The translations under genes and the position numbers were made by a program. A stretch of DNA of 63,323 nucleotides, counting the filler, from Kipferlia bialata (taxonomy: Eukaryota): the NCBI GenBank assembly GCA_003568945.1. It is 5 parts of 5 records of this genome, joined end to end, with 100 filler letters (N's around TTAATTAATTAA, not from the genome) between each part and the next. Parts side by side here need not be neighbours in the genome. Positions count along the whole stretch, not along the records: positions 1 to 14,367 come from BDIP01000827.1; 4 more parts are not named here. One strand, written 5' to 3'. The notes under the pieces were generated by a model. It was not told the DNA's origin and did no database searches. It was given only the letters and a program-made list of their open reading frames with translations. How positions within the stretch are numbered: position 1 is the stretch's first letter; the number at the start of each line of letters is the position of its first letter. Shown in pieces: positions 70 to 43,377 of the stretch.

Positions 70-1186
70 CTGGCAGCCCCAGCACTCCGTTGGTGGCGAT
101 ATCCATCTTGATGAAGTAGCGCACGTTGTTGCCGGCCTGGCCTTCACCGTCATCATCGTAGTGTGCCTCGCATACAACATCTCTGGCATGAGAGAGAGGG
201 AGAGAGAGAGAGAGAGAGATGCCTCGCATACAACATCTCTGATATAAGACTCTTATGTATCACTCTTATGATAAGAGAGAGAGAGAGAGATGCCTCGCAT
301 ACAACATCTCTGGCATGAGAGAGAGGGAGAGAGAGGTATATATATATATCATTACCATGATTCCGACATGTATCATACCTGCCCGGTATCTCGTATGCAT
401 GCAGCTCCTCAGACATGGACCAGGGAATGTTGGAGGGGACCTCGACCTGGCATAAAGGGGTGTAGAGAGAGAGAGAGAGAGAGAGAGAGTATATATATTC
501 CCTACATTGTATAGGGAATGTTGGAGGGGTACCTCGACCTGGCATATAGGGGAGTAGAGAGACTCTCTCTGAGAGAGTACTGGAAGGACCAACCTGGATT
601 GGGAAGCGAAGGGTCGACCTAGCAGCCACTTCTGTCACTCTCTCCTCCCTCATGAGGTTGATGGTGAAGATGGGGGTACTGGAGGGGTGAGGCAGAGCCT
701 AAATAGGGGGAGAGAGAGAGAGAGATATGGGAGATATAAATAGCAACGACAGTGAGTATAGACGTCGAACGGGATCCAATTAGTAGTGTAGATATTGAAT
801 ACCTGTGCACTGCAAGATGGTGCTTTCTGTTGTGATTGTCGCTGTAGCACGTGTGCTCCTCCCCGCAGAGCGTTATCGTCACGCTGGGTATCAGAGGGTA
901 GAGAGAAAAGTCACCGAAAGTCGCGAGTGTGAGAGATATACTATTGAGACAGAGAAGGGGGATAATCCCGCCCTACCAGTTCAGAGTGATGTCCGTCTGA
1001 GGGGTGTAGGTCACCACGGCCTGGATGGTCTCTCCTGACAGTGAGGTGCGGACCAAAGAGTCAACAATTTTCTAATCTGGCACAATATGCATCCATATAT
1101 ACATATCGTGGCACACCTGGGAAGTAAAGAGGCACAGGCCTCCCCCACTCCACGCTCATCTCGCCATCTGTCGTGAATAATCCCAT
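70..1186 (-). CDS. Arrestin N-domain-containing protein, multi-exon, 3' end outside window
   Basis: Hand-spliced exons read MGLFTTDGEMSVEWGRPVPLYFPG|ETIQAVVTYTPQTDITLNW..MTITLCGEEHTCY..STLRFPIQ|VEVPSNIPWSM..|..NNVRYFIKMDI. This resembles the arrestin-N pattern Y-x-PGE-x-V-x-G-x-V, L-x-G-x-E-x-T, F-P-F-x-x-x-LP-x-x-LP-x-S and I-x-Y-x-I-K. GT-AG introns. Confidence 0.7.
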
Positions 1187-1710
1187 CTCAACGTGTAATA
1201 GAGACTTGCATATGTGATGCTCATTGACGCGAGTAAACGGACCGTTTGAGACGTCGAATTAGTCCATTGGTCTATAAATAGACATATAAAATTAGACATA
1301 CTACTGGTATATTTATAGCAGTGAAGCATTAAAAGGAGTCCCAGTGGTTCCTTTTAGCCAAGAATCACCCAACTACTAGGTCTTGACAATGATCACGGTC
1401 ATCTTTCGAGTTTGGTACTGCAAAATTGACACTGTTAAATGAAAGCCTCAAGTGCTTTGAGTGTGTGAGACGCCACTGTGATCGATACGATATGGCACAT
1501 GTAGATAGTCCCTCTATTGTGGGACCATTGAGCATCGTCTTCAGTACAACACCACACAGTTCTCCATATGAGTACAGGGTAAATGTATTGGATTGGGATA
1601 TCAAGCAAAAATACTGTTGGCTGAACGTGAAAGAACATACATCCACAAAAATCTTCGTGGAATATTCCTCACTCTCTCCTTTTCAACTTCAGACTGATAC
1701 CCACCAGACA

Positions 1711-2806
1711 ATGGTGAGTGCATAATAATGAGTGTATGGGGTTGGGATGTATGTTCTTGCCATAGTGATTGTCCTCACATATATCGATACGGCATGTAAC
1801 AATCATGTGAAGTGTGTGATTCTAAGAATAGAAACGTGCAGGGAACTGTACACCGCTTCTTTACTCACTGTAGTCACCTCCATATTTCGGTCTCTCCCAC
1901 TCTCTCTCCCCTTATCTCCTCCTTCCATTCCCTAGCTCTCTTCTGATTCAGCAGGGAATACCGATTCTAGCCATCCGCCTATATGTCTCTCGACGCATAA
2001 TCCCCCCTTCATCTCTCTGCCCCCCCCCCCCTCTCTCTGCCTCTCTCTCTCTCTGTGGCATCCCCCTACATCTCTTTGTATAGGTCTTCTTTCCCTCAGG
2101 GAACTGCTGCCTCCTACTACTCACTCTCTCTCCCTACATTATTGTGTATGTGAGATAGTATGTATTTCTCTCATGCTAGGGAACCGCTGCCTCGTATGTC
2201 GCCCCTTCCAAGCCCAGGTCATTCCTCACAGCCATCAACTGCATGGACGGGAGGTATGCACTGTGTACATTATATAGTATACTAACTGTAATGATGATTG
2301 TTTCTATGTATGTCCCCAACTGCATGGATGGGAGGTATTTTCATACGTATACTATATACTATTAAGTAATATCCTTGTATGTCACACGCTTCTCTACCCA
2401 CTTTCCCTCTGCTCCCCCCCCCAACCTCTCCCTCTAGTATCAAGGCACAGGTCGTACTGTGGTCTATCTCTCCCTATTCTCTCTCTTACCCTCTCATCCT
2501 CTACTACCAGGACCCAGATCCAACTAATCAGATGGATCGTACACTTCTTTGTTTTCACTCCCTCTCTCTCTTTCTCTCACTCTATCTCTCACTCTATCTC
2601 TCTATGCTCCTCTAATACCAGGGCCCAGATCCCACTGATCAGGTGGATGATGGAGAAGTTTGAGGTATGAATATATGATATTATATCACTAATGCTGACC
2701 TCTCTCTCCCTCTCCCTCTATATGTGTGTATATTTACCATTCCAATATATACTATTCCTTATGTCTAACAATAGGGTGACTACGTAGACTCCATCACCGA
2801 GGCTGA

Positions 2807-2842
<36 letters not shown>

Positions 2843-4355
2843 GTGTCGTATATATATATATCTATATGTATTATACTCTAACATATCTAATTATAGGGTG
2901 ACTATGTGGACTCCATCACTGATGATGACCTCTCTATCTTCCTCTATCCCCCTCTCTCTCTATATATATAATGACATATATATGTGTGGGTGTACTATGT
3001 ATATATATCTAACGCCAGGGTGACTATGTAGACTCCATCACTGAGGCAGGGCCTGTCAGGTTCTTCGCCATGGGAGACAGTGCACCCCAGAAGCACAGGT
3101 GGATATAATATATTCCATGCATAACAGATACTGTCTCTCGATAGTGCATGTGTGTATATATGTTATATCCACTCACCCCAGAGACATATATGCCAACATG
3201 ATGGAGAGGATCGACATCAGTGTGCACAAGCACGGGAGCAGGTAGAGGATACATATAGTATAGTATATATATACTATAATATGTACTATATATGTATATA
3301 TATATAGGATAGACATCAGTGTGTACAAGCATGGGAGCAGGTGGGTATTTATATGTATATATTTATTATATATATACTATACTATGTAATATATGTATAT
3401 CTATGTATGGGATCGACATCAGTGTGCACAAGCACGGAAGCAGGTATAGTATCCATATAGGTCTACATTCACAGTTTATCGTCTCTGAGAAAGCACGTTC
3501 TCTCTCTCCACACTCTTAATAGTTCTTAACCCCAGGGTCATCATCATTGCTGCCCATCCATCCTGTGCTGGCAATGTGTGCTGTGACAAGGATCAGGTAT
3601 ATACTATATATATATACTATATTATATAGATACTATATATATATAGTTTATATAGAGTATATATAGTATGCAATGTGTGCTGTGACAAGGATCAGGTATG
3701 TATATTGCTATATGAACTCTCTATATACGTACGTACATATAGTATGTCCCATTAATTACATTCTATGTGTACTGTGACAAGGACCAGGTATGAGATATAT
3801 ATGTGTTGATTAATGCGTGTGATTGTTACTATATAGTTCCATGTATTATTTGCAAGTATGTATATGTGTGTTGTGACAATGACCAGGTATCGTGTGTTCA
3901 CGTCTATCCATATATACATATAGCATCTGATAGCTCTCTAGTAGTATATTTCGAGACTACCACCATATATATATGAATTTTGAAGTTGTATATACAATTG
4001 AATTAGTTGTAACCCCCAGAAGACCCAGCTGCACCAGGCCGTGAGGACTCTCAAGGGTCTGTACCCATCCTGCAGGGTGGAAGGTACTCTCTCTCTCTCT
4101 CTCTCTCTAACTCTAACTCTAACTCTATGGATATTCGTATACCTAGACACATACTTAGACTTCTCGTCTTCTCTCTCTCCCCCTCTACACCCTTAATGCC
4201 AGGTGTATGGGTGTCTCTCTAACTCTACACCCTCCATTCATTTATACATTGGTCGCTCTCTCTGTCCCTCTACACCCTTAATCCAAGGTGTGTGGGTGTG
4301 GCCTGACAGTGGCAAGGACTGGGAGGACGTGGAGGTGGTGGTCATAGCGGAGTAA
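1711..4355 (+). CDS. Putative carbonic anhydrase, prokaryotic beta-CA-like family (Pro_CA_2-like), about 8 exons
   Basis: Spliced product M|GTAASYVAPSKPRSFLTAINCMDGR|AQIPLIRWMMEKFE|GDYVDSITEAGPVRFF..|..ERIDISVHKHGSR|VIIIAAHPSCAGNVCCDKDQ|KTQLHQAVRTLKGLYPSCRVEG|VWVWPDSGKDWEDVEVVVIAE*. Contains the C-x-D-x-R and H-x-x-C zinc ligand motifs of beta-type carbonic anhydrases. The ATG-only first exon at 1711 is inferred. Confidence 0.8.
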
Positions 4356-5013
4356 GATGCACTCTATCATGGCGTCCCTATCTGCCTCTATATTGAAGAG
4401 ACTCTCTACTTGAGAGAGAGAGAGAGATGGAGGTGGCAAGGACTGGGAGGACGTTGAGGTTGTAGTCATCGCAGAGTGAGGGGGAGATAGAGAGAGAGAG
4501 AGAGAGATTAAGGTCGTAGTCATAGCAGAGTAGGCAGACAGATGCTTGATGGTGTATTAATAGACAAGACAATTACCTGAGGAAGTGTGGTTTTAGTATG
4601 GACTCCATAGTATGGAGTACGAATCATACTATGGAGTGTGTGTTGTATGAGATGATTAATGAATTTATGAGAGTTCTCTCTGAGAACTATCAGGCATTGT
4701 GGATACTCTACCATTGATATACGATAGGGCTGATGATCCCAAGTATTCAGCCAAGACCCAGAGTCATGTAATAATTATCATTGCTAACCGGCCTATTGCT
4801 TCCACCAATACTGATGGTGTTGATGATAGTGATTTTCAGCCATTGGGACTTCATCAGCATTGCTGACAGCAACACTACAGTATAGTACATACTCTATTTA
4901 CAACAAGAGTGATATCCTCAGACGGCGGCCACCTCTCACAATCTCCAGTGGAGATTCTCCACTGACACTCTCTCATTCACTGTCTTATAGTCACAGTATA
5001 TATACTAGACCTA

Positions 5014-5818
5014 ATGGATCCAGCAACACTGCGTGAGAGGGCTGTCCACGCCCTCCGCTACTCCTTCCTAGGGGATTCTCTCTCCATGCCTGTGCACTGG
5101 TACTACAGCGTGGCAGACATATACAAGGCATTTGAGGTGGGTTAGTTACCTTCAAAAGCACACATTCACCTAACCCCTTAGAGTATAGAACACCATAGTC
5201 ACCTCTTATGATACAGGGTGGTGTCACCAAGCTGGAGTCCGCCCCCACCCTCCACCCCTCCTCCATCATGTCCCTACACTCCACTGCACATGGGGGGAGA
5301 GAGGGGACAGAGGGAGGTAATAGTGATACTAGGCCTACTAATACTAATACTATTGCTGATGAATACCCCTCCTCCATCATGTCTCCAGAGCACATGGGGG
5401 AAGGCAGGGTCTCTTTGGGAGGTACTACAATATATGTATTGGTAATTACCATAACTATTTTACTAATATATACTGCACATTGGGGCAGAGAGGGTACATC
5501 TGGAGGTAATGACACTAGGCCTAATAATACAGATACTATTGCTGATGAATACCCCGAGGTATACATTTTTCCTATACACCGTAGAATAGTGACACACTAG
5601 TACGTATTGTATGTGATCATAATATTCATAGGGATGGACGCTGCACCTGGGGGTAGGCAGGGTACTTTTGGAGGTATTAGTACCAGTTAGTGGGATACAT
5701 TTATAACTATATGTAGTACTGATTACAGGCACCACGGAGATAGTGGGTGACGTGATACTCAAGGGCAAGAGGCAGTACTGGGGTGTGGCCAACATGCACT
5801 ACCACCAGGGGATGAAGG

Positions 5819-5850
<32 letters not shown>

Positions 5851-7674
5851 TTGATATTGTATACAGAGCTGAATACCCTTTGAATTCAGTGTGATTGAAT
5901 CACTGATTCTAGTGCAGACAGTCGTCATATATACCCAACATGCACTACCACCAGGGGATGAAGGTGGGGGTTGTGTGTGATACAGTGCTACATTAACCAG
6001 TGATCAATAATGATTAATCCGTTATTAATAATCACTGTAGATTATGTGTAATTATACTGACATGCACTACCACCTGGGGATGAAGGTGTATATATTCATT
6101 GTATACAGAGCTGAATTCCCTTTGAAATCCGTGTGATGATATTGCAGACAGTAGACAATCTTCCCAACCTGCACTACCATCAGTGAATGTGCAGGGCTTA
6201 TGAATATTCTTATACATTAATCACTGTACTACAGTCTGTAGATTCTGTGAGATTAGACTGACACATAGGCAGGAGAGAACACCCTCAACCTACAGTGTGC
6301 CAGACTGGTACTCAGGGAGGTGGCACAGGTATCATTGTCAACCAGTCATATTCATTGAGTACTAACTTATCAATATTTACTATTTAGTGATTCAGTTTTC
6401 ATACACTGCCTTAGGTATCTGATACTTTACCTAACACCAGGGCCCCTACAACGCCGACACCTTCCTCTCAGACACATATATGTATATTCACTAGCACTTA
6501 TTATTTACTATTCAACCTATGCAAGGTACTACATTCTCCCTACCACCAGGGCCCCTACAACCCAGACACCTTCCTCGCTGACTACGTCGCCTACATGACT
6601 GCTGACCCCCCTGCATACCATGACACATATGCAGAGTCGTTCCACAGAGGGTTCTTCGACAACATGCAGGGCGGAAAGTACGTTATATTGCGAAGAATAC
6701 TACCCTATACAGTGTAGATGTGCTCTCCACAAGTATTTCTTGTAATTACAGTCTAACTTGTAATATACAAGTTCACTTGCCGATATATCCAGCAAGAACC
6801 TTAGTAGCAGTTACAGTACCGGTGATTCTTACTCTAGGGATCTGCACGAGTGCGGGGCAGCCACGCATGACACAGCATCCATTGGGGGTGAGTAGTGTAT
6901 ATTGTGTAGCACATACAGTATCATAGCATTGAATCACTCTTGACAAGAATCTTGTACATTCACTGATGACACTGTGAAGAGGTGTTGTATGTGTATAATG
7001 AACCTCGTCTCACACTCAGGTCTTGCCACCATAGCACCCCTGGCCCTACCCTCCCTTCTCAGAGGCATGTCTGTAGTAGATGTCCAGAGAGTCTGCCGCA
7101 CACACCTGCACCTTACACACCCATCTGATACTCTTTACAGTGTGTGTGACGACTATGTGAGTCTGATCTCTGAGCTGCTACACATAGAGGAGGGTATAGA
7201 CCCTAGTACAATTGTAGAGGCATACCTCCTCAGCGCATCTCCCACTGCCACACCAGCAGAGTGGATGAAGAGTGCCAAGGACACTGAAGTAGTCGGTGGT
7301 GTCTACAGCCCTGCCTGCTACATATCGGACTCGTGGCCATCCACACTCTACCTGGCATACAAGTACCTACACTCCACTGGTCCAGACTCTGTGAAGCAGG
7401 GTCTCCTTGCCAACGCCAATGTAGGTAAGTGAAAGACGATATTAGTCGCCAAGACGTCAGTCTCTCAGCTGGTAATGGTATTGTACACTCTTACTGAATA
7501 ATTGTAAGACTACTGTATATACATACTAACCCAGGTGGTGACAACTGCCACAGGGGTGCAGTCCTGGGTGTGATACTGGGCCTATGCACTGTGGACACTG
7601 AGGCTGACACTCTCTACTCTGGCCTTGTAGAGCATGACGCCATTGAGAAGGAGATACAGACAGCCATAGAATAA
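5014..7674 (+). CDS. ADP-ribosylglycohydrolase (ARH/DraG/crystallin J1 family)
   Basis: Exons encode FLGDSLSMPVHWYY, HYHQGMK|AGENTLN, HDTYAESFHRGFF, SPACYISDSWPSTLYLAYKY and LLANANVG|GDNCHRGAVLG, matching the GDAL..P and N-x-GGD-x-x-x-RG motifs of this family. Stop TAA at 7672-7674. Confidence 0.88.
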
Positions 7675-8012
7675 GGCCTGTAGAGAGTCTCTACTAGAGA
7701 CACTCTATTATAGAGAACAACTGAGTTGTCCTACGTGTTATACACTGACATAGTATCCAAGCGATTGAGTGGGAGACACGTGCAGCCATAGAATACGAGT
7801 GAATGAGTTACTGTCTACAGAGATTCGGTACACGAGTCCCCAAATTGACATAGCAAGCCAATGATGCGTATCGGTTGTGTCTCCATACATATCCACAACA
7901 AGCAAAAGAATCTCTATCGCAGAAAGAACGAAAACTCCGTCTCTCTACTACTCCCTCTTGACCCACCAAATACTATACCCATGACAGTATATCATACTAT
8001 CTATTCTCTGCT

Positions 8013-8871
8013 CTACTGCTCCCTCTTGGCAGCTGGGGCCCTGTCTCCACCTCTGTCTCCTCTGTTGCCAAAGGAGCGCTTGCCTAGAGGTTAATACTAA
8101 ATACCTCTCGCATTCAAAAGTAAACAGGAGCGCTTACTGCAGCTAGAGGCTACAGAAGATATAAATATATATATTGTGTTGGTACCTCTGAAGCCTCCAC
8201 GTCCGCCTCTGCCACCACGGAAGCCACCACGGCCCCTGCCGCCTCTGAAGCCACCTCTGCCTGGGGTTACAGGGAGAGTGACAAGAAGACTCACACACAT
8301 AATAGAAGAAGACACTTATGCCTGGTGATACAGAGAGAATGAACAGCACTAACTCAATAAACACACTTCTAATTGAAACCCAAATAATGAACTGTAAAAC
8401 GTATAGATGCATACCTCTGCGGCCACCCCTGCCGCCTCTCGTGCAAGGTTATGTATATATGTATAATTCTATGTATATGTATATATGAATAATACTACTA
8501 TACATATATAGTGCATACCTCCACGGCCACCCCTGCCGCCTCTCCCTCCCCTTCTTCCTCCACGGCCACGACCACCACGGCCTCCCCTGGGGTGAGTAGG
8601 CTCTACACACGAAAACTGTATATCTACAAAATGATACCCGCTGAATGTAACACAAAACACATGGCTAGATCAATACACTATAACACTATAACAATAATGC
8701 ATTACTATTATAATACCTGAATCCCCCGCTCTGTCTGTGTCCAGACCATGATTCATAGATACACATAATTAGACCAGCAAATAATCATATATTACTGTAT
8801 CTATCACGTTATTATTACTATATTGTACCTGAATCCGCCGCTCTGCCTGTGTCCAGACCATGACACATACT

Positions 8872-8902
<31 letters not shown>

Positions 8903-10520
8903 AACTTTAGAATGTATTGCTATATATATATAGTACCTGAATCCCCCGCTCTGTCTGTGTCCAGACATGCCTCTCTATCTCTCATATTCACACGAAAGAT
9001 ACCTCATAGACAGTATATAGTACAGGTTAACATAGAAATACCTGAATCCCCGCTCTGCATTCTAGTATAAGTAACTACTATTAACTACTACTATACCTGA
9101 ATCCGCCGCTTTGTATACACGTATAGGACTAATATTATATGTAGTACCTAAATCCGCCGCTCTGTCTGTGTCCAGACATGCCTCTCTGTATATCTCTAAT
9201 TCATACAAAAATACTTCACATATAGAAGTATATAGTACAAATTAACAGAGAAATAACTGAATCCCCGCTCTGCATTCTAGTATGAAAAACTATTATGAGT
9301 TACTATTTCAATACCTGAATCCCCGCTTTGAATACACGTATAGGACAAATATCAATATAGTACCTGAATCCCCCGCTCTGCATTCTAGTATAAGTTTCAA
9401 TACCTAAATCCAGCATAAAATTACTATATAGTACCTGAATCCCCCGCTCTGCCTGTGCCCAGACATGCCTCTGTCTCTGTCACCCTCTGTCCTGGGGGCA
9501 ACATAGGACATCATCTGAGGGGTGAGGTTATACATGTATGTAGAATGAGAGAGCGACAGTATAATGGAAGAATTATGAAAGGGCGACATATGACATCATC
9601 TGGGGGGTGAGGGAATATATTCAAATGCTTATATACTATAAGTATGTAATAGTTACAAAGGTTTATAGGACATCATCTGAGGGGTGAGGGATATATATAT
9701 GTATATACATTATTAATACACTAAGAATAGAGTTATGGTTGTAATTGTTACACAGGCCCATAGGACATCATCTGGGGTGAGGGTACTCATATATTCAGCT
9801 AGAGAGAGAGAAACACAGTATATAATGGAAACACACACTGCAAGAATTATGAAAGGGTAAAATAGGACATCCTCTGAGGGGGGTGAGGGTACATACACAT
9901 ATATACTCGGTATATATCAACAGTCACAAAGGTCCGTAGAACATCTACGGTGAGGTTACATCAGTCAATGTATGTAGAAAATCGATGTTCTTATTGATAT
10001 ATAGTCACTATATATACCTGGTTCTCTGGGCATATGTCTGCATCAGATGGCAGCACCAATATCACATACGTATATACATGTATATATATGTGTATTAATA
10101 CATATGTATATATATGTGTGTGTAGACCTGGTTCTCTGGGCATATCTCTGCATCCTCGGGTAGCACGACAAGGCCAGCCTTCCCAGAGGGGACAGAGGGG
10201 GGGTACTCAGTGCCCACAAACCTAGGGGTTAAGAACCGTAAATATATATATATATAAATAGACATATATATATATAGAGAGAGAGAGAAAGGACAGAGGG
10301 GGGGTACTCAGTGCCCACAAACCTAGAGGGTTAGGACTACAGTAACAGGTTTGCATATACCGAGATATTACCTGTTTGCCTCGAAGTTGTATCCGATGAG
10401 GTCGTCTCTACCAATATTATTACATATACTTATAATTATTACAATGGATATATATATGAGTATATATAATTTTGTACCTGTTTGCCTCGAAGTTGTATCC
10501 GATGAGGTCGTCTCTACCAA

Positions 10521-10551
<31 letters not shown>

Positions 10552-10682
10552 TATTACAATGAATATATCTATAATACATATATAATGTACCTGTTTGCCT
10601 CGAAGTTGTACCCGATGAGGTCGTCTCTCTCGATGGCCCTGCCAATGAGGGACCGGAGCACAACGGTGGCATAGCTAGTTGT

Positions 10683-10733
<51 letters not shown>

Positions 10734-10852
10734 TGAGTGAGTGAGAGAGACTCTTCCAATGAGGGACCTGAGCACAACGGTGGCATAGCTGGAGATTAGA
10801 GAGAGAGAGAGAGAGANNNNNNNNNNNNNNNNNNNNNNNNNNNNNNNNNNNN

Positions 10853-10893
<41 letters not shown>

Positions 10894-12430
10894 GTGAGTG
10901 AGAGAGATTCTTCCAATCAGGGACCTGAGCACAACGGTGGCATAGCTGCAGGTCAGTGCATATAGATTTGTAGTATATGGAGACATATATCAGGGACCGG
11001 GGAGCACATGTGGTTGGAGTACCCTTTATCGAAATATGCCAACATAAGTGTATCTATATACAACCACAGTACCTGCTGGATCCGAGTGTGAATCTGACGT
11101 GGAGAGAGACAAAGTGGCCATCCCTTGGGGGGACAACGACCTGGGTGAGGTATGGTAACATATGTAGTGAATAGTTAATGAGCGTCAAGCACTTGTGTAG
11201 ACCACAACTGATAATTGTGCACATGTACAGTACAGAAATAGTATCGTGCAGTTATTTAAATGATAAAGTGGATACCTTCACGGGCTCCTCAACCTTCTCC
11301 TCTGGCTTGGCCTCAGCCTAGATAGTGAGAACATGGGTGTATACATATGATATGACATAATGAAAATACATACGATATGATATAAGAAAGAAACTCTGAA
11401 CATGTACAATCTTTGGATAAGTGATATGTTTACACTCTTCACAAAGGACAAATTGCTAAATGAAGAGACCATAGTGGCTATACCTCAACCTTCTCCTCTG
11501 GCTTGGCCTCAGCCTCAGCCTGGGGTTAACAAGTGGAATTAATCGATGCATTTGTAATACACAATACCTTCATCTCTACGTCTCCCTCGGCCACCACGGC
11601 CTCAGTCTTGGGCTCAGCCTTGGGTAAGAACAGATACATACCAACCATTACGGATACGGGTGTACGTCAATATCTCTATTTCACTACCAGAGAGGGTACG
11701 GCAATTACACAAATGCTAAAGAATACGATATGAATACTTGATAGTGTCCAGATAGTAAAGAAAAATGTATATACCTCGGCCTCTGCCTCTGCCACTGGCT
11801 CAGCTGCCTTCTTCTCAGGCTTGGTCTCCTCAGTGACAGGCTGGTATGAATATATACATCTATATATATATAATATGAATAGGGGTGTGGAGGCAGAAAT
11901 GAACGACTAGCGGTATTACATGGTGAATAATGAGATATACAAGAGAGATTGTACCTCGGCCTTAGGCTCCTCAGCCTTCTCCTCTACATGCTTCTCAACA
12001 GGCTTCTCCTCCTCCTTCTTCTCCTCTACCTTGGGCTCAGGCACAGGCTGCATGTGAGTATACATACATATACATATGTATCTATCATTAGTAACGAGTA
12101 TTGCAATGGTATATCACAATATATGTATATATTGAGGGAGAGAGAGAGAGTATATGTACCTCAGGGAGTGGCATTGCCACGCACACCTCCTCAGGGAGAG
12201 AGAGAGACAGTGCCTGGTTGGCACGGACAAAGGCCTCCTCGGGGAGAGAGAACATGGTCCTGGGAATAAGGGTGTAGGGGGAGAGCACCAGTGTAAAGTA
12301 CCTTATCCCTTTCCTACAAATCTATTATTGACTATTATAATTACTAAACATATATATGAATATGTGCAGTATATATTTGTGTATACCTCTTGACCTTGTG
12401 TACTACCATGGCCATGTAATGGATTAATGC

Positions 12431-12471
<41 letters not shown>

Positions 12472-13049
12472 TCTAATACAAATTGTACATATATACCTCT
12501 TGTCTTTGTGCACCACCATGGCCACATCGATGTCAGACACGGAACGGATGACCTAAGGGTTAGTGTATACGCATACACAGCACATATTAACGGAGAATAG
12601 TTTCATACATTTACAGTACCCTAGGCCGAATGCTTCTTATTAAAGAGAAAGGAATTACATAGGTCTATACACATATAAACCTGTCTGTATCTTCCAGTGA
12701 CGCACATGTCCTTGGGTGCCCTAGATAGAGGACTATGCACACCTATGCACTCTATATATACATGTATATATATACATATATATAATGTATATATACCTGT
12801 CTGTATCTGCCTGTGACACACATGTCCTTGGGTGCCCTAGGAAGATGACTACTATATATACATACACACCCTACATATACGTATATACAGTGTATACTTA
12901 CACACCCTACATATACGTATATACAGTGTACACATATGTACTTGTATGTATATGCATATATACCTGTCTGTATCTCCCAGTCACACACATGTCCTTGGGT
13001 GCCCTGGGCAAAAGACTTTCTATATCTATATGCTCTATATGTCTATGGA

Positions 13050-13086
<37 letters not shown>

Positions 13087-14285
13087 TATACCTGTCTGTA
13101 TCTCCCAGTCACACACATGTCCTTGGGTGCCCTAGGTAGAGGACTACTATATATACTTACACACCCTATATATACATATATACAATATATACATATAATT
13201 ACCTGTCTGTATCTCCCAGTGACGCACATGTCCTTGGGTGCCCTGGGCAGAGAGTCAAACCCATGCTCAAAGCCATCGGCCTTGAGCAGCTCGTTGATGT
13301 ACTCGCCTAGGGGGTTAGAGGAAGACATAAATATATCAGGCTATATGTATACTTGTAGATATCCATGTACCTATCTCTCCCTTGGGCAGCAGGACTATCC
13401 TACAATAATAACCATTTACAAATATTTACATCTACGATACTATTTGTATACATATATATACATGTTCCTATCTCTCCCTTGGGCAGCAGGACATCCCTAT
13501 ATAGAAATATTCATACATTCCATACACGCACATACACGAATAGTAATAATATCAGGGATACATATGTGTACCTATCTCTCCCTTGGGCAGCAGGACATCG
13601 TGTCCGACAAGGGGCAGTACCAGCTGGGACATGTCTGAGTGTAAGAGTAATGTATGTATATACATATATAAGACACTAAAGATGTATATATGTACACTTG
13701 TATACACATAAGAATGATTTAGTACAATCCGGGACATGTCTGGGGTTAGACACCAAATGTAAAGTGAATATATAGTATATATACTATATATAGTATATAT
13801 AGTATATATAGTATATATACTATTCATGTCAATGTATAGGCAGTGACACCCTGAAGTATGTTGATAGAGATGCATATACCTGACTCATCGAAGGGTGTCG
13901 GCTCAGGAACCTCCTCCTCCTTCTCCTCCTCCTTACTCTCTCCCTCTCCCTCCTTCTTCTCTCCCTCTCCCTCCTTCTTCTCTCCCTCTCCCTCCTTGCT
14001 CTCTCCCTCTGTCTCCTTGCTCTCTCCCTCTACCTCCTGCTTCTCCTCAGAGGGTGTGGGGACATGCACAGGCTGAAAAGTGAGGACATACATGTATATA
14101 AATAGACAATTGTACAAATGAAATACTCTAAATAACAATCTATCCATATATACAGTGGGGGTGGGCACAGACACAGGCTGAAAAGTGAGCATATATATGT
14201 GTATAGAGAGAAATGAATATGAAAATAGAATACTCTAAATGACAGTCTCTCCATATATACAGAGGGTGGGGACATGCACAGGCTG
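8013..14285 (-). CDS. PUS7: tRNA pseudouridine synthase PUS7/TruD, C-terminal part, with E/K-rich inserts and RGG tail; 5' end beyond contig
   Basis: Exons QLVLPLVGHDVLLPKGEI|GEYINELLKADG..DMCVTGRYRQ and VRFTLGSSS|YATVVLRSL match the TruD C-terminal motifs (VVLPLPG, GxYR, F-x-L-x-x-S-x-YATxxLRE). Then GGFRGGRGRGGFRGG repeats and last exon GKRSFGNRGDRGGDRAPAAKREQ*. Confidence 0.82.
8713..9890 (-). repeat. Array of partial exon-end copies around one PUS7 tail exon
   Basis: About 11 copies of (plus strand) tacctgaatcc(c/g)ccgct at 8713-9450 and about 5 copies of taggacatcatctg at 9504-9880. Confidence 0.9.
12679..13250 (-). repeat. Five copies of exon end (LP)RAPKDMCVTGRYRQ + GT donor
   Basis: acctgtctgtatct..catgtccttgggtgccct at about 12679, 12795, 12962, 13090 and 13201. 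Confidence 0.95.
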
Positions 14286-14367: not shown

Positions 14368-14467
14368 NNNNNNNNNNNNNNNNNNNNNNNNNNNNNNNNN
14401 NNNNNNNNNNNTTAATTAATTAANNNNNNNNNNNNNNNNNNNNNNNNNNNNNNNNNNNNNNNNNNNN
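14368..14467. other. Artificial contig linker (44 N + TTAATTAATTAA + 44 N)
   Basis: Six-frame stop spacer between N runs; identical 100-bp structure recurs three more times. Confidence 0.97.
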
Positions 14468-21097: not shown

Positions 21098-21369
21098 GTG
21101 TGGGCTCTTGTCTATGTGTACTCCCCTTTCCCCCTCCCTCCCCTCCCCCCATCACTCTCACACTTCATACATACTACCAACTCTCTCTCTTCTCCCCCCC
21201 CCNNNNNNNNNNNNNNNNNNNNNNNNNNNNNNNNNNNNNNNNNNNNNNNNNNNNNNNNNNNNNNNNNNNNNNNNNNNNNNNNNNNNNNNNNNNNNNNNNN
21301 NNNNNNNNNNAATTTTTTTTTTTCCGTTTTTTTCCCCCCCCCCCCCCCCCCTCCCCCCCTCACCGCAGT

Positions 21370-28831: not shown

Positions 28832-28931
28832 NNNNNNNNNNNNNNNNNNNNNNNNNNNNNNNNNNNNNNNNNNNNTTAATTAATTAANNNNNNNNNNNNN
28901 NNNNNNNNNNNNNNNNNNNNNNNNNNNNNNN
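28832..28931. other. Artificial contig linker
   Basis: N44-TTAATTAATTAA-N44. Confidence 0.97.
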
Positions 28932-29106: not shown

Positions 29107-32100
29107 CTATGTGGTCCCCGTGTCTGCCCTCGACGGTGTCGGCCTCAAACTGTAGGTTGTCGGCATACTCAACCTGGGAGTGAGTATATACATACATATA
29201 CAAACGTGCCAAAGAGTAAGTCATTAGCATACTCTCAAGGTATCTGTCATGAATAAGCATATATATATATAATATTATACATGTAGAATATAGATAGAAT
29301 AGCTGACATCACACACCAGCTCCTCCTTGGCCGTAAGGCATCTGTCACGGTATGGAATATATAATATTGACAGAATATGGAATATACAACACACCAGCTC
29401 CTCCTTGGCCTTCTCCGACATCTCAGGGTGCTCCTTGTCAAGGATCTGACGCAGCCCGGTGTCCTGTTGTGAGTATACAAGTATATACATATACGGAATT
29501 ATGTATATATACGTAAATCTATATATATATATACGTATACACGTAACAACACACAGTAACCACACGCTGGAATCACACTCACACTGAATCTGATACTGAC
29601 GCAGCTCGGTGTCCAGATATATGAGTATACAAGTAGAAATACGTAACCAACACCCTATGCTATCCAGTACATAAATCACTATATAGAAAGTGCTGCTGAG
29701 AGTGTAGACAATCGTGCCATTATTGACAGATAACAATACTCATGAAGAAACATGTGTGTCCGCGTAAGCTTGTACAGAAACCATATTCAAGGCACAGCAT
29801 TCTATACTATAAAAATACTTATAGCAGGCTCCTACTGACGAATAACATTGCATGTCACTTACCCTTGAGAAGTTGTGGGGGTCCCTAACAAGCCTGGGAT
29901 TAGAGAAGAAAGAGTGAGGCGGTGGAGTGAATATCATTACATACTGAATGTGTTTTGGACATGGAAATCGAAACAGTATATCACTGAGTATCATTGAATA
30001 CATCAACTTACACAATGATAGAGTGAACCATATATATTTAGAATATATATAAATATATTTACTCCCACACCGTACCTCTTTATGCAGTCCTCCTTGTAAG
30101 CCATGGGGTTGTTCTCATCAGCTGCATAGATGGCCATGAGCTCAGCCCTGTTGGTAAGATATATATGTATGTGCACATATACGTATATATGAATATGTAG
30201 AGAGAGACTGCTAGATGTAGATGACCTACACCATGAGCTCAGCCATAGTAGTAGGAGAGGAAGAGAGAGAGAGATCGAGAGGGAGAATGATCAAATAGAC
30301 CATAGGCTTACCACTATCCAAAAGATTCACATAATACACATATGTCAATGGAGTATATAAGTATACATATATTACTGTTGTATATACACCTTGACTTGTG
30401 GTCCTCAATGTCATCGGCAGCAGTATATACAATAATGCATATATGTGTATATATACTAATACATATACCCTACATACCTTGACTTGTGGTCCTCCATGTC
30501 ATCAACTGGCACCACACGGACTAGGCCATCACCGTCTGATATGAGACTGTTGTAGAGGTGTACATACATTTGTATTCACTATCAGTGATTAAGTGTAGTA
30601 GTAAACACAAAACCGGTATCATATACTAATCACTAATACGTACCATTACGGCCACAGAAGTCCTCCTGGTTGCAGTTGAACGCCTGGATCAACCCTGGGT
30701 GAGATACACGGAGGGAGATTACAGAAAGGTAAGGTAATGTGTACATATATATGGAGTACATTGCAGAGTATGTCAATATATGTCAATGAGTAGATATAAT
30801 GTATGAATCTTATCCCGGCCAGTTTGGTAAGTTTGAAACAGGAGCTTATGCATACCCTCATCTCCTAGACGCAGCATGTCGGTGACCTCCTCTGGCATCT
30901 GCGAGATAAGAGAGAGATGGGGAAGAGAAGGAGAGAGAGAGAGTCAGATGAAGAGATACTTGATGTGGGGTACCTGTGCGAGGTTGAGCTGCCAGAACAG
31001 AGACATGAGGCTGGGGGTGAGAGAGGTACATCAGAGAAACATACACACACACATATTTATACTGATATCTCCACTTGATGTGTATATATACGAATTCTAA
31101 TGCCATACACATACCCTCCGCAATTCTCGCATCTGGGTAACTCCTCATCTGTGCCCACATAGCCATAGCCACCCCTCTGAGGTGAGTCTGTCACACAATA
31201 TGTATAGCATACATTGTATATATGGATTAATGTTTATATCAATCCTTGGACAGATAGCCATACCCACCCCTCTGAGGTGAGAGGGAGATAAGTAGAGAGA
31301 GAGAAGGAGAAAAAGAGAGAGAGAGAGACCTCGTCAGTACCCACATAGCCATACCCACCCCTCTGGTGTGAGAGAGAGGAAGAGGCGGGGAGGGGGGAGA
31401 AGGGGAGAGGAAGGGAGAAGGGGAGAGGGAGAGAGACACCCGCACATCAATCCGACTCCCTAATGACTATTCAGAATCCTGCATAACCAAAAATGTCACG
31501 TTACACTATCATGTGTATACACATACATACATGTATATGCATACATACCTTGGAGTCAAGCAGTGATCCGATCACGGGCTCAGTTGTGGCCCCCTCCCCG
31601 CCCTCCTCTCCCTCTCCCTCACTGTCCTCCATGCCCATGCCCATCCCTGCCATGCCCTGTACCTGGGCAGTGTCCTGGCCCTAGGGTCAGTACCAGTATA
31701 TGTATATTAGTATTAAATGATTCCTCGAACATATAATACTAGTGTAATAGTATAGTATATGATGCAGATGCCCTGTCCCTGGGCATTGTCCTGGCCCTGG
31801 TGTCAGTATCAGTATCAACTATATATAATAGATGATACCTCGTATATAGAGTAATAGTGTATTAGTCTATGATGTAGACACCCTGTCCCTGGGCAGTGTC
31901 CTGTCCCTAGTGTCAGTATCAGTATCAATAATACATATGTGGTGGTTCCATGCTTACGATGCATCAGAATCAGTGTCAGTTATCATAATCATATGATACG
32001 TTGCATATGATGCAGTATGTAGTATCAATATCAGTCTTATACATACATTCTTGTATATCAGTATCAGTATCATATTGTACCTCGTATATGATGTAGTATG

Positions 32101-33847
32101 CAGTGCGGTAGTGCCCGTCCAGGCACCTGTGCAGCAGGGCACCCATGTTCTCCTTCACTGACATTAAGGGTGTAGAGGGAGAGAGAGAGAGAGAGGGAGT
32201 TGTTATGCATTATATGTCCCTGACGTGTGGGTCCTAGGGCACTCTATATTTACACAAATACTGCACTTTCATCAATGCATACATAGGTAGGTATGTGTCC
32301 AGTACCTGATATGGTGTCCTTGTCCACACACTTCAATGATTATGCCCGGTAGAGAGAGAGAGAGAGAGAGAGAGGTACCTGGTATGATGTCCTTGACGGG
32401 AGGGTCCTCGGGGATGACAACCTCAGCCTCTGCCTCAACCTCCTCAACCTCCTCCTCACTCTCCTCCCCCTCACTCTGTCTCTTGATGGCTGGGGGGGCG
32501 GGGGATCCCTTGGCTGCGTGGAACCTGCAGTACCCAGCAGCATTCAGCTAGAGGTGAGTGGGTCACTGCATATACATATTATATACATTAAGAAGAGTAT
32601 TGCTTACATATGCATGTATTATATGATATTGACCAGTCAGTACCCAGCAGCATTCAGCTGGGGTGGGTATTAACATGAATGGATACTATTTAAAAGTCAC
32701 ACCATGCATGTGCATAGATAGGGAGATAAACTTGAGGATTTAGATTGTATTTATGTGTATGTAGACTGCATATACCTTTGTCTGTGTGCATGGGTCTCCA
32801 TTCTTCTTGATTCCCCTACACACAGTCACTTCCTGAAGGTAAGAAGATACGTATTCAAATGTGTTTCATCTTTGTAGGAAGGAAGGACACCAACAATATT
32901 TCCTCCTCACCGTGAGGGGAGGGATAAGGGGGCTCAAAGAACACTTCCATGGCCATATACACGTAATTATACATATGCCAAGTCATATACAAACATACAT
33001 CCTCCTCTTCCTCCATAACTGGCAGCATCCCCTATAATACCACTCATATGCCATATACGTATGTATACAACCATTCCTCCTCCTCCTCCTCCATCACTGG
33101 TATCATCTCCTCCATATGTATCATATGTTCACTAATATACTAATCAATAGAAGTATATATATAAGTGTATATGTATCATTATACCTCCTCCTCCTCCACC
33201 ATCACTGGCAGCATCTCCTCCAGCATCTCTGGACAGGGGGGTGGGCACTTGCCACCTGGGGTTCCGGTATGCACAGGGGCAGCCTGGGGTCAGTATCAGT
33301 ACCAATAAATATGAAATATATATACAAATATTGATGAATATATCTATAATGGGCATATATAAATACATATGTCTAAAGAAATACAGGGAATACATATATT
33401 GTAGTATATATATACACTTCCCCTGCCTTGGGTCCCCTGGGTGCCTTGCCTGGAGGTGCACAGCGGATGGCCTGAGGGTCAGAGAAGAATACATGTGTGT
33501 ATGAGTATATATACAATAGAAATACATATTGAAACAATATAGAGACTGATACTGATACTAGGTGTGCACATAGGATGGCCTGAGGAACAGAGGAGGCTAA
33601 GGAAGAAAACATGGGGGTATATTTACGGTAGACTCTCTTCGTATTTGCCAATACCTTGTCCCCAGCCAGCTCGTAGTATCTCTCCCAGGCCTCCTCCTCA
33701 CAGGATATGGTACATGGTGTGTATATATACAATACAACATATACATATATACATATATATCCATTTACCTTCTCCCCTGCTAACTCGCAGTATCTCTCCC
33801 TGGCCTCCTCCTCACATGATATTATATATATAGAATATGGTATATAT

Positions 33848-33881
<34 letters not shown>

Positions 33882-34238
33882 CCATTTACCTTGTCTCCTG
33901 CTAACTCGCAGTATCTCTCCCTGGCCTCCTCCTCACATGACAGGACATTATGAACTATATATATATATATATATATATATAGATAGATATACATATATAT
34001 ATATAGATACCTTGTCCCCTGCCAGCTCCCAGTATCTCTCCCTGGCCTCCTCCTCACAGGACAGGACATGGGTGGCCTCCATACCATCGGCCTTCTTCCA
34101 GCTAGAGGTTAGAGGGTGATAGAATATCACTGACAGTGATATCATACACATTAATGTATACATATAGAGATAGGGGGGGGGGAGAGAAGACATGGGTCTT
34201 CTTCCAGCTGATATCAATTATATATACATATAGGTAGA

Positions 34239-34278
<40 letters not shown>

Positions 34279-34378
34279 ATGAGTGGCCTCCATGCCATCG
34301 GCCTTCTTCCAGCTAGAGGTTAGTGTGATGTATACGTATATGAAAGAATAACAATATATGTATACATATATATATGAA

Positions 34379-34415
<37 letters not shown>

Positions 34416-35267
34416 GAGAGAGAGTGAGTAAATGTGTGGCCTCCATACCATCGGCCTTCTTCCAGCTGGTATAAGAGGAGCTGGGTATATATAGATATAT
34501 ATAGGTATATATAGATATATATATAATATGGAAAGAGAGAGAGAGATAATGACGATCTTCACGATATGGTATTTCTTCCAGATAGAGGTGGGAGAAGAGT
34601 GATATTAATAAATATACAAGGAGAGAGAAAGAGGGGAGAGGGGGGGTAAGCAACTATTCAGGAGGAATACATATACTCTGTGTGCCGTTACATATGTATA
34701 TGTATTACCTCTGTGTCCCGTTCTTGTCTGCCTTGTTGATAGAGTAATACATATGTTAATATATATATTGCAATTCTGTATATTTATAGAGAGAGAGAGT
34801 ATTAATTAATACATATATGCCTCTGTGTCCCATTCTTGTCTGCCTTGTTGATGTATGTCCTGCCATCATTGCCACGCATCACAGTGCCTGTCAGGTTAGT
34901 GCCACATCATATACACTGTATATACTATATTCCTCATCTAGGATATGACTCTCATCATTGCCACGTATCACAGTGCCTGTCAAGTTAAGAATCACCTCAT
35001 ACACACTGTATATAGTATATATACACACTTGGATATGCCTCCCATATTGCTAAGAGTGAACTATTTTGTGTCTACTTGGATAAGGTTAGTCTTGTAATGC
35101 ATTGCGGGCAGTAGCAGAAGGATATGAGACAGAGCACTGCACACAGACAGTATTGTCACAGAGTGATCGGTTCCAAATCGAAGAAGAACCTCAGACTGAT
35201 ATATCTATCCCTTACCTAGCTCTGCAGCCTTTCCAGAGAGGGGGACACTGGGTCTCTTCTGAAACAT
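29107..35267 (-). CDS. Hypothetical multi-exon protein with N-terminal RPS..GNDG..NG..WKK motif and a CCCH-type (DUF5763-like) zinc finger; 3' truncated
   Basis: Exons [70 protein letters not shown] .. [29 protein letters not shown] .. acidic stretches; about 17 short exons with YTRAC-CCC-AG acceptors. Confidence 0.65.
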
Positions 35268-43277: not shown

Positions 43278-43377
43278 NNNNNNNNNNNNNNNNNNNNNNN
43301 NNNNNNNNNNNNNNNNNNNNNTTAATTAATTAANNNNNNNNNNNNNNNNNNNNNNNNNNNNNNNNNNNNNNNNNNNN
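43278..43377. other. Artificial contig linker
   Basis: N44-TTAATTAATTAA-N44. Confidence 0.97.

Follow-up and report, generated by a model that had tools for sequence, protein, structure and literature searches.

Internal gene duplication and intron gain by tandem duplication are short intragenic duplications that copy splice signals and create new introns or exons; internal gene duplication was reportedly addressed by Gao and Lynch in 2009, in work that is cited in connection with the amphioxus mirages. The closest described systems are these mirages and a repeat of the human F7 gene. In amphioxus, mirages were described for Adh3, the globin genes BflGb6 and BflGb9, troponin C and PGBD5 (Ebner et al. 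2010, PMC3087553; PMC3902484). Like the repeats described here, they are minisatellite-like tandem copies across an exon-intron boundary which lie in the adjacent intron (PMC3087553). In both systems either boundary can be copied, AG and GT are mostly retained and splicing is undisturbed, in Kipferlia as judged from PUS7 (PMC3087553, PMC3902484). Repeats of the mirage type are also marked by copy-number polymorphism between haplotypes or cells and by exchange or concerted evolution among units. Intron 7 of human F7 contains a 37-bp VNTR, the first unit of which spans the exon-intron boundary (Borensztajn et al. 2006, PMC1557585). Selection of the most upstream donor keeps the donor copies downstream of it silent (PMC1557585).

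Skipped splice-junction repeats of the mirage type, called ghosts in the following, were observed with high confidence in Kipferlia bialata, a free-living fornicate related to Giardia. The repeat type as such is already known; what is new is its density in a new lineage and an excess of silent differences between ghosts and live exons. The amphioxus mirages were reported locus by locus in a chordate, with units of 10-160 bp (PMC3087553), whereas Kipferlia is a unicellular organism in which about half of the exons of repeat-rich genes carry ghosts, with a median unit of 106 nt. The F7 VNTR is a single locus and affects the donor side only; Kipferlia also shows arrays on the acceptor side, of which the last acceptor is used, and silent variants. 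In contrast to internal duplications that create introns or exons, the copies in Kipferlia lengthen existing introns and are skipped. The word "synonymous" is absent from the main text of the amphioxus study and no silent bias is described in that main text (PMC3087553). A literature search at the level of listings gave no report of such repeats in Kipferlia, nor of a silent bias in mirages.

The 84-nt PUS7 exon and its four ghosts

The window is the whole analyzed stretch of 63,323 nt, which consists of five K. bialata contigs joined by artificial N linkers, and the census given below is confined to it. The genome was assembled from short reads with SPAdes, and 124,912 introns were reported for it (PMC5874029); the word element "duplicat" does not occur in the genome paper (PMC5874029). 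The first contig (1-14367) carries a PUS7/TruD-like gene, the 5' part of which lies beyond the contig end at 14367 and which corresponds to the public K. bialata protein P0001 (KIPB_004037, PF01142). The Pfam family TruD (PF01142) matches the partial PUS7 protein with E=6e-06 and 25.8 bits, which is below the curated cut-off of 27 bits. The only PDB matches of the protein are yeast and human PUS7 (7mzv, E=4e-05; 5kkp, E=1e-04). In this comparison a SYAT stretch, which is not significant by itself, aligns to the C-terminal YAT motif of PUS7. Pfam searches with single exons revealed nothing at a useful level for the five PUS7 pieces. When residues 272-350 of P0001 were compared with a protein collection, P0001 itself was the only match among 71 candidates. 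The catalytic aspartate region of PUS7/TruD belongs to the N-terminal half of the protein.

Contigs of two runs from one sample, X1 (DNA) and X2 (RNA type), were placed on positions 8000-13700. The RNA type of X2 is presumed from contigs that skip introns; none of the listed runs is recorded as RNA. X1 is possibly the source of the window itself, so that its agreement tests the assembly and not the biology. The PUS7 exons from 11316 to 8518 and from 8259 to 8047 are supported by RNA-type contigs.

Table 1. Positions of the PUS7 gene, its live exons and ghosts, further ghost arrays and sequence gaps in the window.
Feature	Position	Strand	Remarks
PUS7/TruD gene, 3' part, 17 exons	8013..14072	-	27 ghosts at 8 exons after one was dropped
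Live 84-nt PUS7 exon, S|YATVVLRSLIGRAIERDDLIGYNFEAN|R	10591..10674	-	phase 2-2, open frame
Splice sites of the live exon	acceptor AG 10675-10676; donor GT 10589-10590	-	
Outer 5' ghost	10910..10947 (exon copy 10910-10945)	-	own acceptor (CTGAC..CAG) plus exon nt 1-36
Inner 5' ghost	10753..10790 (exon copy 10753-10788)	-	own AG plus exon nt 1-36
Inner 3' ghost	10476..10515 (exon copy 10478-10515)	-	exon nt 47-84 plus GT
Outer 3' ghost	10370..10409 (exon copy 10372-10409)	-	exon nt 47-84 plus GT
Scaffold gap, 36 N	10817..10852		in a GA/TC microsatellite that separates the 5' ghosts; no listed contig bridges it
Four 3' ghosts of PUS7 exon 13203-13306	12681..13141	-	
3' ghost array of PUS7 exon 9435-9514	8717..9381	-	6 at threshold
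Four 5' ghosts of PUS7 exon 9435-9514	9581..9873	-	inside X1 record 4
Region where P0001 appears mismodelled	9364-9385 and 8519-8586	-	
Equally polarised ghosts in models g1-g3, three neighbouring genes	220..6473		hand-built models
Equally polarised ghosts in model g5, a 19-exon gene of another contig	29317..34976	-	hand-built model
Ghosts of exon 34011-34101	33655-33948 and 34191-34465		strongest candidate for a split exon
N-linker joins between contigs	14368-14467, 28832-28931, 43278-43377, 57715-57814		sequences across joins are not true neighbours
Further N gap, 108 N	21203-21310		

Sequence comparison recovered all five pieces of the original prediction, i.e., the exon, two 5' ghosts and two 3' ghosts, on the minus strand. 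The acceptor of the inner 5' ghost sits behind a TC tract resembling that of the live exon, and the intron downstream of the inner 3' ghost resembles that at the live donor. The upstream intron of the outer 5' ghost differs from that of the live exon. The predicted silent changes CGG>AGG and GGC>GGA occur in both 5' ghosts, CTC>CTG in the outer 5' ghost only and GGG>GGA in both 3' ghosts, all likewise silent. AGG>AGA, also predicted for the 5' ghosts, is present, but it is less certain because it lies at the edge of the alignment, at the transition from the copy to the TC tract. The ghosts are real, silent-only and once-functional versions of the exon, as had been claimed. The two halves had further been described as nearly complementary and lacking only AIE. 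Here the uncovered part comprises 10 nt (nt 37-46, AIE plus one base). However, the ATTGGT which precedes both 3' ghosts can alternatively be read as IGR with AIER missing, and with this reading the 5' and 3' halves overlap instead of abutting.

In record 10 of X2, six PUS7 exons follow one another in their order with 0 other letters, among them 10589-10671 between 11073-11138 and 10128-10219. Its 3 unplaced letters are equal in length to the first 3 nt of the live exon. The assembled transcript thus runs past each of the four ghosts. In all, the RNA-type contig passes over the ghosts of four PUS7 exons with 0 other letters, and only the full 84-nt exon is spliced; contigs lose rare splice forms, and this check covers PUS7 only.

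On the DNA side, record 5 of X1 corresponds to 10919-11316 (398 nt, depth 430, 0 other letters). It joins most of the outer 5' ghost to the upstream exon in a contig of normal depth, and a scaffolding duplication of this copy, which the original prediction had named as its possible undoing, is thereby not borne out. The record ends exactly at a 30-mer which is present only at 10919 and 10762 and is common to both 5' ghosts, so that this break of the graph implies the inner 5' ghost in the reads. Placed contigs cover neither the inner 5' ghost nor the N gap. For the outer 3' ghost, the DNA bin 10292-10482 is covered, its contig pieces not being listed singly. Record 4 of X1 (9158-10219, 1062 nt, depth 430) is unbranched and spans two exons and several other ghosts. 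The contigs placed on 8000-13700 are long and unbranched, and no variant letters were reported for them. X2 gives no cover in the bins that contain the 5' ghosts or the outer 3' ghost, and X1 none in bin 10674-10864; these blank bins carry no evidence because repeats and filtered records were left out.

Ghosts in five repeat-rich genes

Self-comparison of the window revealed 83 local repeat pairs. Of these, 78 fall into two regions, 1-14.3 kb and 29.3-35.1 kb, while very few lie in the genes at 44-53 kb and 58-63 kb, which are rich in introns. For the census we used five hand-built gene models with 59 exons, which were chosen for having repeats and of which a part of PUS7 was checked by RNA. 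An anchored search identified 69 half-copies at 30 of the 59 exons. Thirty of them are copies of exon starts located upstream and 39 are copies of exon ends located downstream, while none shows the reversed arrangement. At the same threshold, 0 matches were obtained in 651,200 nt of exon against unrelated intron and 1 in 189,808 nt of non-adjacent introns. Looser scoring gave 31 starts and 41 ends versus 1 and 2 reversed copies and 4 matches in the null. The start copy of PUS7 exon 15 was dropped, being the same DNA as the end copy of the previous exon, which leaves 68 ghosts at 29 exons.

The splice dinucleotide is retained in most ghosts (AG in 27/29, GT in 36/39), although the detector requires neither. 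The 10-90% range of the unit length is 78-147 nt (n=68). Introns with ghosts are threefold longer than those without (median 368.5 nt, n=30, versus 119 nt, n=24). The intron flanks of the ghosts show 57-61% identity at positions 3-6, compared with 40-43% in the null, and reach background by positions 21-40. The four 3' ghosts of PUS7 exon 13203-13306 show 14 differences from it, 13 of which are silent (12 by a strict single-change rule), and include three-state silent sites.

Several single observations were made in these genes. Model g3 (5014-7675, plus strand) is an ADP-ribosylglycohydrolase-like gene (PF03747, E=3e-05), and the neighbouring gene at 1711-4866 (plus strand) has a faint match to a putative carbonic anhydrase (PF20393, E=0.11). 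The donor of the modelled live exon 34821-34887 (minus strand) is GC, whereas the 3' ghost of this exon at 34709-34740, about 110 nt downstream, has GT. At 31735-31912 (minus strand), 5' ghosts alternate with short remnants of the end of the previous exon, a pattern expected from a duplication that spans a whole intron. In the E/K-rich insert of PUS7, whole-exon duplicates (AEAKPEEKVE; 11484-11519 and 11276-11317, minus strand) both seem to be used.

Silent excess and origin of the ghosts

Ghosts and live exons show 125 distinct differences over 1085 sites, and 69 of these are silent. A mutation model with 12 rates predicts a silent share of 25% if only the ghosts change and of 40% if the live exon drifts silently as well. 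The observed share deviates from both (p=9e-13 for neutral decay, p=5e-4 for in-place duplication); with the loosest alignment and kappa 4, the excess over a rate ratio of 2 weakens (p=0.059). Stratified by base change, the ratio of silent to replacement rates is 4.1 (95% 2.6-6.3, bootstrap over 29 exons), under the assumption that neutral intron DNA changes at least as fast as the silent sites of live exons. It amounts to 3.6 (2.0-6.3) for the nearest ghosts only, where 2.6% of the resamples are at or below 2, to 3.9 without CpG sites, to 3.7 outside PUS7 and to 5.9 in RNA-shown exons. Fourfold sites differ at 66/271 positions (0.24) and zerofold sites at 48/1283 (0.037). Between ghosts, 41 silent and 25 replacement differences were counted.

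In-place duplication was simulated with the same detector and gave ratios of 1.8-1.9 with a maximum of 2.9 in 450 runs, compared with 5.3 observed on that count. Conversion among copies raised the ratio to at most 2.19. A corrected silent divergence of about 0.2 is left unexplained, and a simulation to which a starting allelic divergence was added reproduces the data. Several candidate causes of the silent bias were rejected: CpG hypermutability and base composition do not account for the excess, nor does detector bias, as simulations run through the same detector stay below the observed value, and in-place conversion stays within the bound given above. The silent excess exceeds what simple in-place copying allows (at most about 2.2).

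Ordinary mirages formed in place, by slippage or unequal exchange between sister chromatids, would decay neutrally and owe their silent bias to drift of the live exon only. This explanation accounts for the polarity, the unit length with its median of 106 nt and the 14 of 68 ghosts without any difference from the live exon. In its favour, the interval of the ratio for the nearest ghosts reaches down to 2.0. Nevertheless, we regard it as rather unlikely, since the predicted ratio of at most about 2.2 is confronted with 4.1 (2.6-6.3). It also leaves unexplained that in 22 of 33 silent cases the nearer ghost differs while the farther one equals the exon, that all four three-state sites are silent, and that the intron flanks are far more diverged than zerofold sites. 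The order of ghosts need not equal their age. Paired ghosts share variants, and 3 of 7 informative site pairs, in 2 of the 7 larger arrays, are incompatible with a tree, which may indicate a mosaic.

The layout of the PUS7 exon had been taken to show that an older exon was split. This is not supported, as half-copies are common and 20 of the 29 ghost-bearing exons have one kind only. A split older exon is not required by the layout and may apply to a subset of exons. According to this explanation, a break in the older exon would have been patched by a complete new copy with both splice sites, the old halves would flank it, each later duplicated once, and few bases would be lost at the break. 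Several features of the PUS7 exon agree with this: only 10 nt are uncovered between the halves, both 5' copies have a common end and both 3' copies a common start, and the upstream intron of the outer ghost is unlike that of the live exon. In exon 34011-34101 (91 nt), the longest halves (34 and 59 nt) meet within 2 nt, and such rescues would be favoured by selection. However, 5' and 3' ghosts do not co-occur above chance (Fisher p=0.23; among 50 internal exons, 9 have both kinds, 8 and 11 have one kind and 22 have none). With an exon of 84 nt, a gap of at most 10 nt arises by chance at about 0.11. The 9 two-sided exons have a median gap of 16 nt versus 24 expected (p=0.10). A gap of at most 13 nt in 4 of these 9 exons is favourable (p=0.045), but it is one of six further complementarity tests, the other five of which gave p=0.17, 0.18, 0.31, 0.36 and 0.40. 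Thus one of seven statistics in all, based on n=9 exons, is below 0.05. In addition, the 3' copies may start with IGR and overlap the 5' copies, and two template switches would be needed instead of one. Therefore, the split is an unlikely origin of the ghosts.

Protein-level selection on ghosts that are or were translated, as remnants of whole-exon duplicates or as rare splice pieces, would explain the silent bias directly, and the whole-exon duplicates in PUS7 noted above suggest that such units are in use. Decaying whole duplicates, however, should leave either half on either side, which is contradicted by the polarity of 69 to 0. The GT of a 5' ghost joined to the TAG of a 3' ghost would be out of frame, and the RNA-type contig joins across all four ghosts, rare forms dropping out of contigs. 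Such an explanation is hard to sustain. An assembly artefact, i.e., alleles stacked or sequence duplicated at the scaffold gap, is hardly credible: the N gap does lie between the two 5' ghosts and the inner one has no placed contigs, but the copies differ in sequence and flanks, the contig of the outer copy has the depth of unique DNA (430 versus 320-430), and the 1062-nt unbranched contig carries several other ghosts without variant letters.

We consider it somewhat more probable than the contrary that the ghosts arose by exchange with an already diverged, functional homologue and can be regarded as fossil alleles, whereby we infer the mechanism and the donor. Recombinational repair or unequal exchange would join the chromosome out of register to a homologue carrying a diverged functional allele, and one breakpoint in the exon together with one in the flanking intron would give exactly the observed polarity. 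The half-copies would be tolerated because each has a single splice site and the spliceosome would take the closest acceptor-donor pair. A diverged homologue, with a silent divergence near 0.2, is assumed as donor because the ghosts have kept replacement sites and splice dinucleotides almost unchanged, in contrast to silent sites and intron flanks. Subsequent misalignment of a ghost with the exon or with another ghost may multiply and mix the copies; the inner 5' ghost, which combines silent variants of the outer ghost with a live-like TC-tract acceptor, is what such misalignment would give. The homologue could stem from outcrossing, as the haplotype of a mate, or from an old heterozygous state that has since been lost. 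No second allele was seen: the database has a single protein from a single contig, and the contigs placed on 8000-13700 show no variant letters. The donor is therefore unobserved. Further results against this origin are that ghosts farther from the exon are not more diverged (rho 0.11, p=0.47) and that the excess over 2 weakens for the nearest ghosts only and with the loosest alignment. Ten ghosts differ at replacement sites only and, together with the 14 identical ones, indicate that some copies arise or decay in place.

Metamonads lack NHEJ, and fornicates have lost Rad51A and keep two Dmc1 (PMC8516963). Sex was not observed, and Carpediemonas appears to be haploid (PMC8516963). Dmc1 was described to stabilise mismatched joints (PMC6719624).

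Gene prediction, splicing and possible genetic exchange

Ghosts can mislead gene prediction. The public PUS7 protein P0001 agrees with our hand model for 377 residues, and its residues 385-459 appear to take a ghost as exon, out of frame, by which the RGG tail is lost. The RNA-type contig joins 9434 directly to 8585, which leads to an RGG-rich tail with 14 RGG.

The spliceosome is reduced, with 87 of 174 proteins found (PMC6679479). The arrays represent many natural tests of how a reduced spliceosome chooses the first donor or the last acceptor among near-identical copies, and the GC-donor exon 34821-34887 with its GT ghost is a natural test of donor choice. Furthermore, ghosts show a route to intron lengthening.

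The ghosts in this free-living relative of Giardia differ from the live exons mainly at silent positions and are likely leftovers of diverged gene versions. If they are fossil alleles, one genome holds population-level data, and a silent divergence near 0.2 would, if true, point to very high diversity and to exchange between homologues in a free-living fornicate. More tentatively, the introns of Kipferlia could be an archive of past mates, in which half-exons would be replaced again and again during Dmc1-based repair between haplotypes of strong divergence. The displaced allele would then stay stacked in the intron, and one now-homozygous genome would record many ancestral alleles. Outcrossing would thus be documented in a metamonad lineage in which sex was never observed, and the ghosts may testify to genetic exchange in a group without observed sex.
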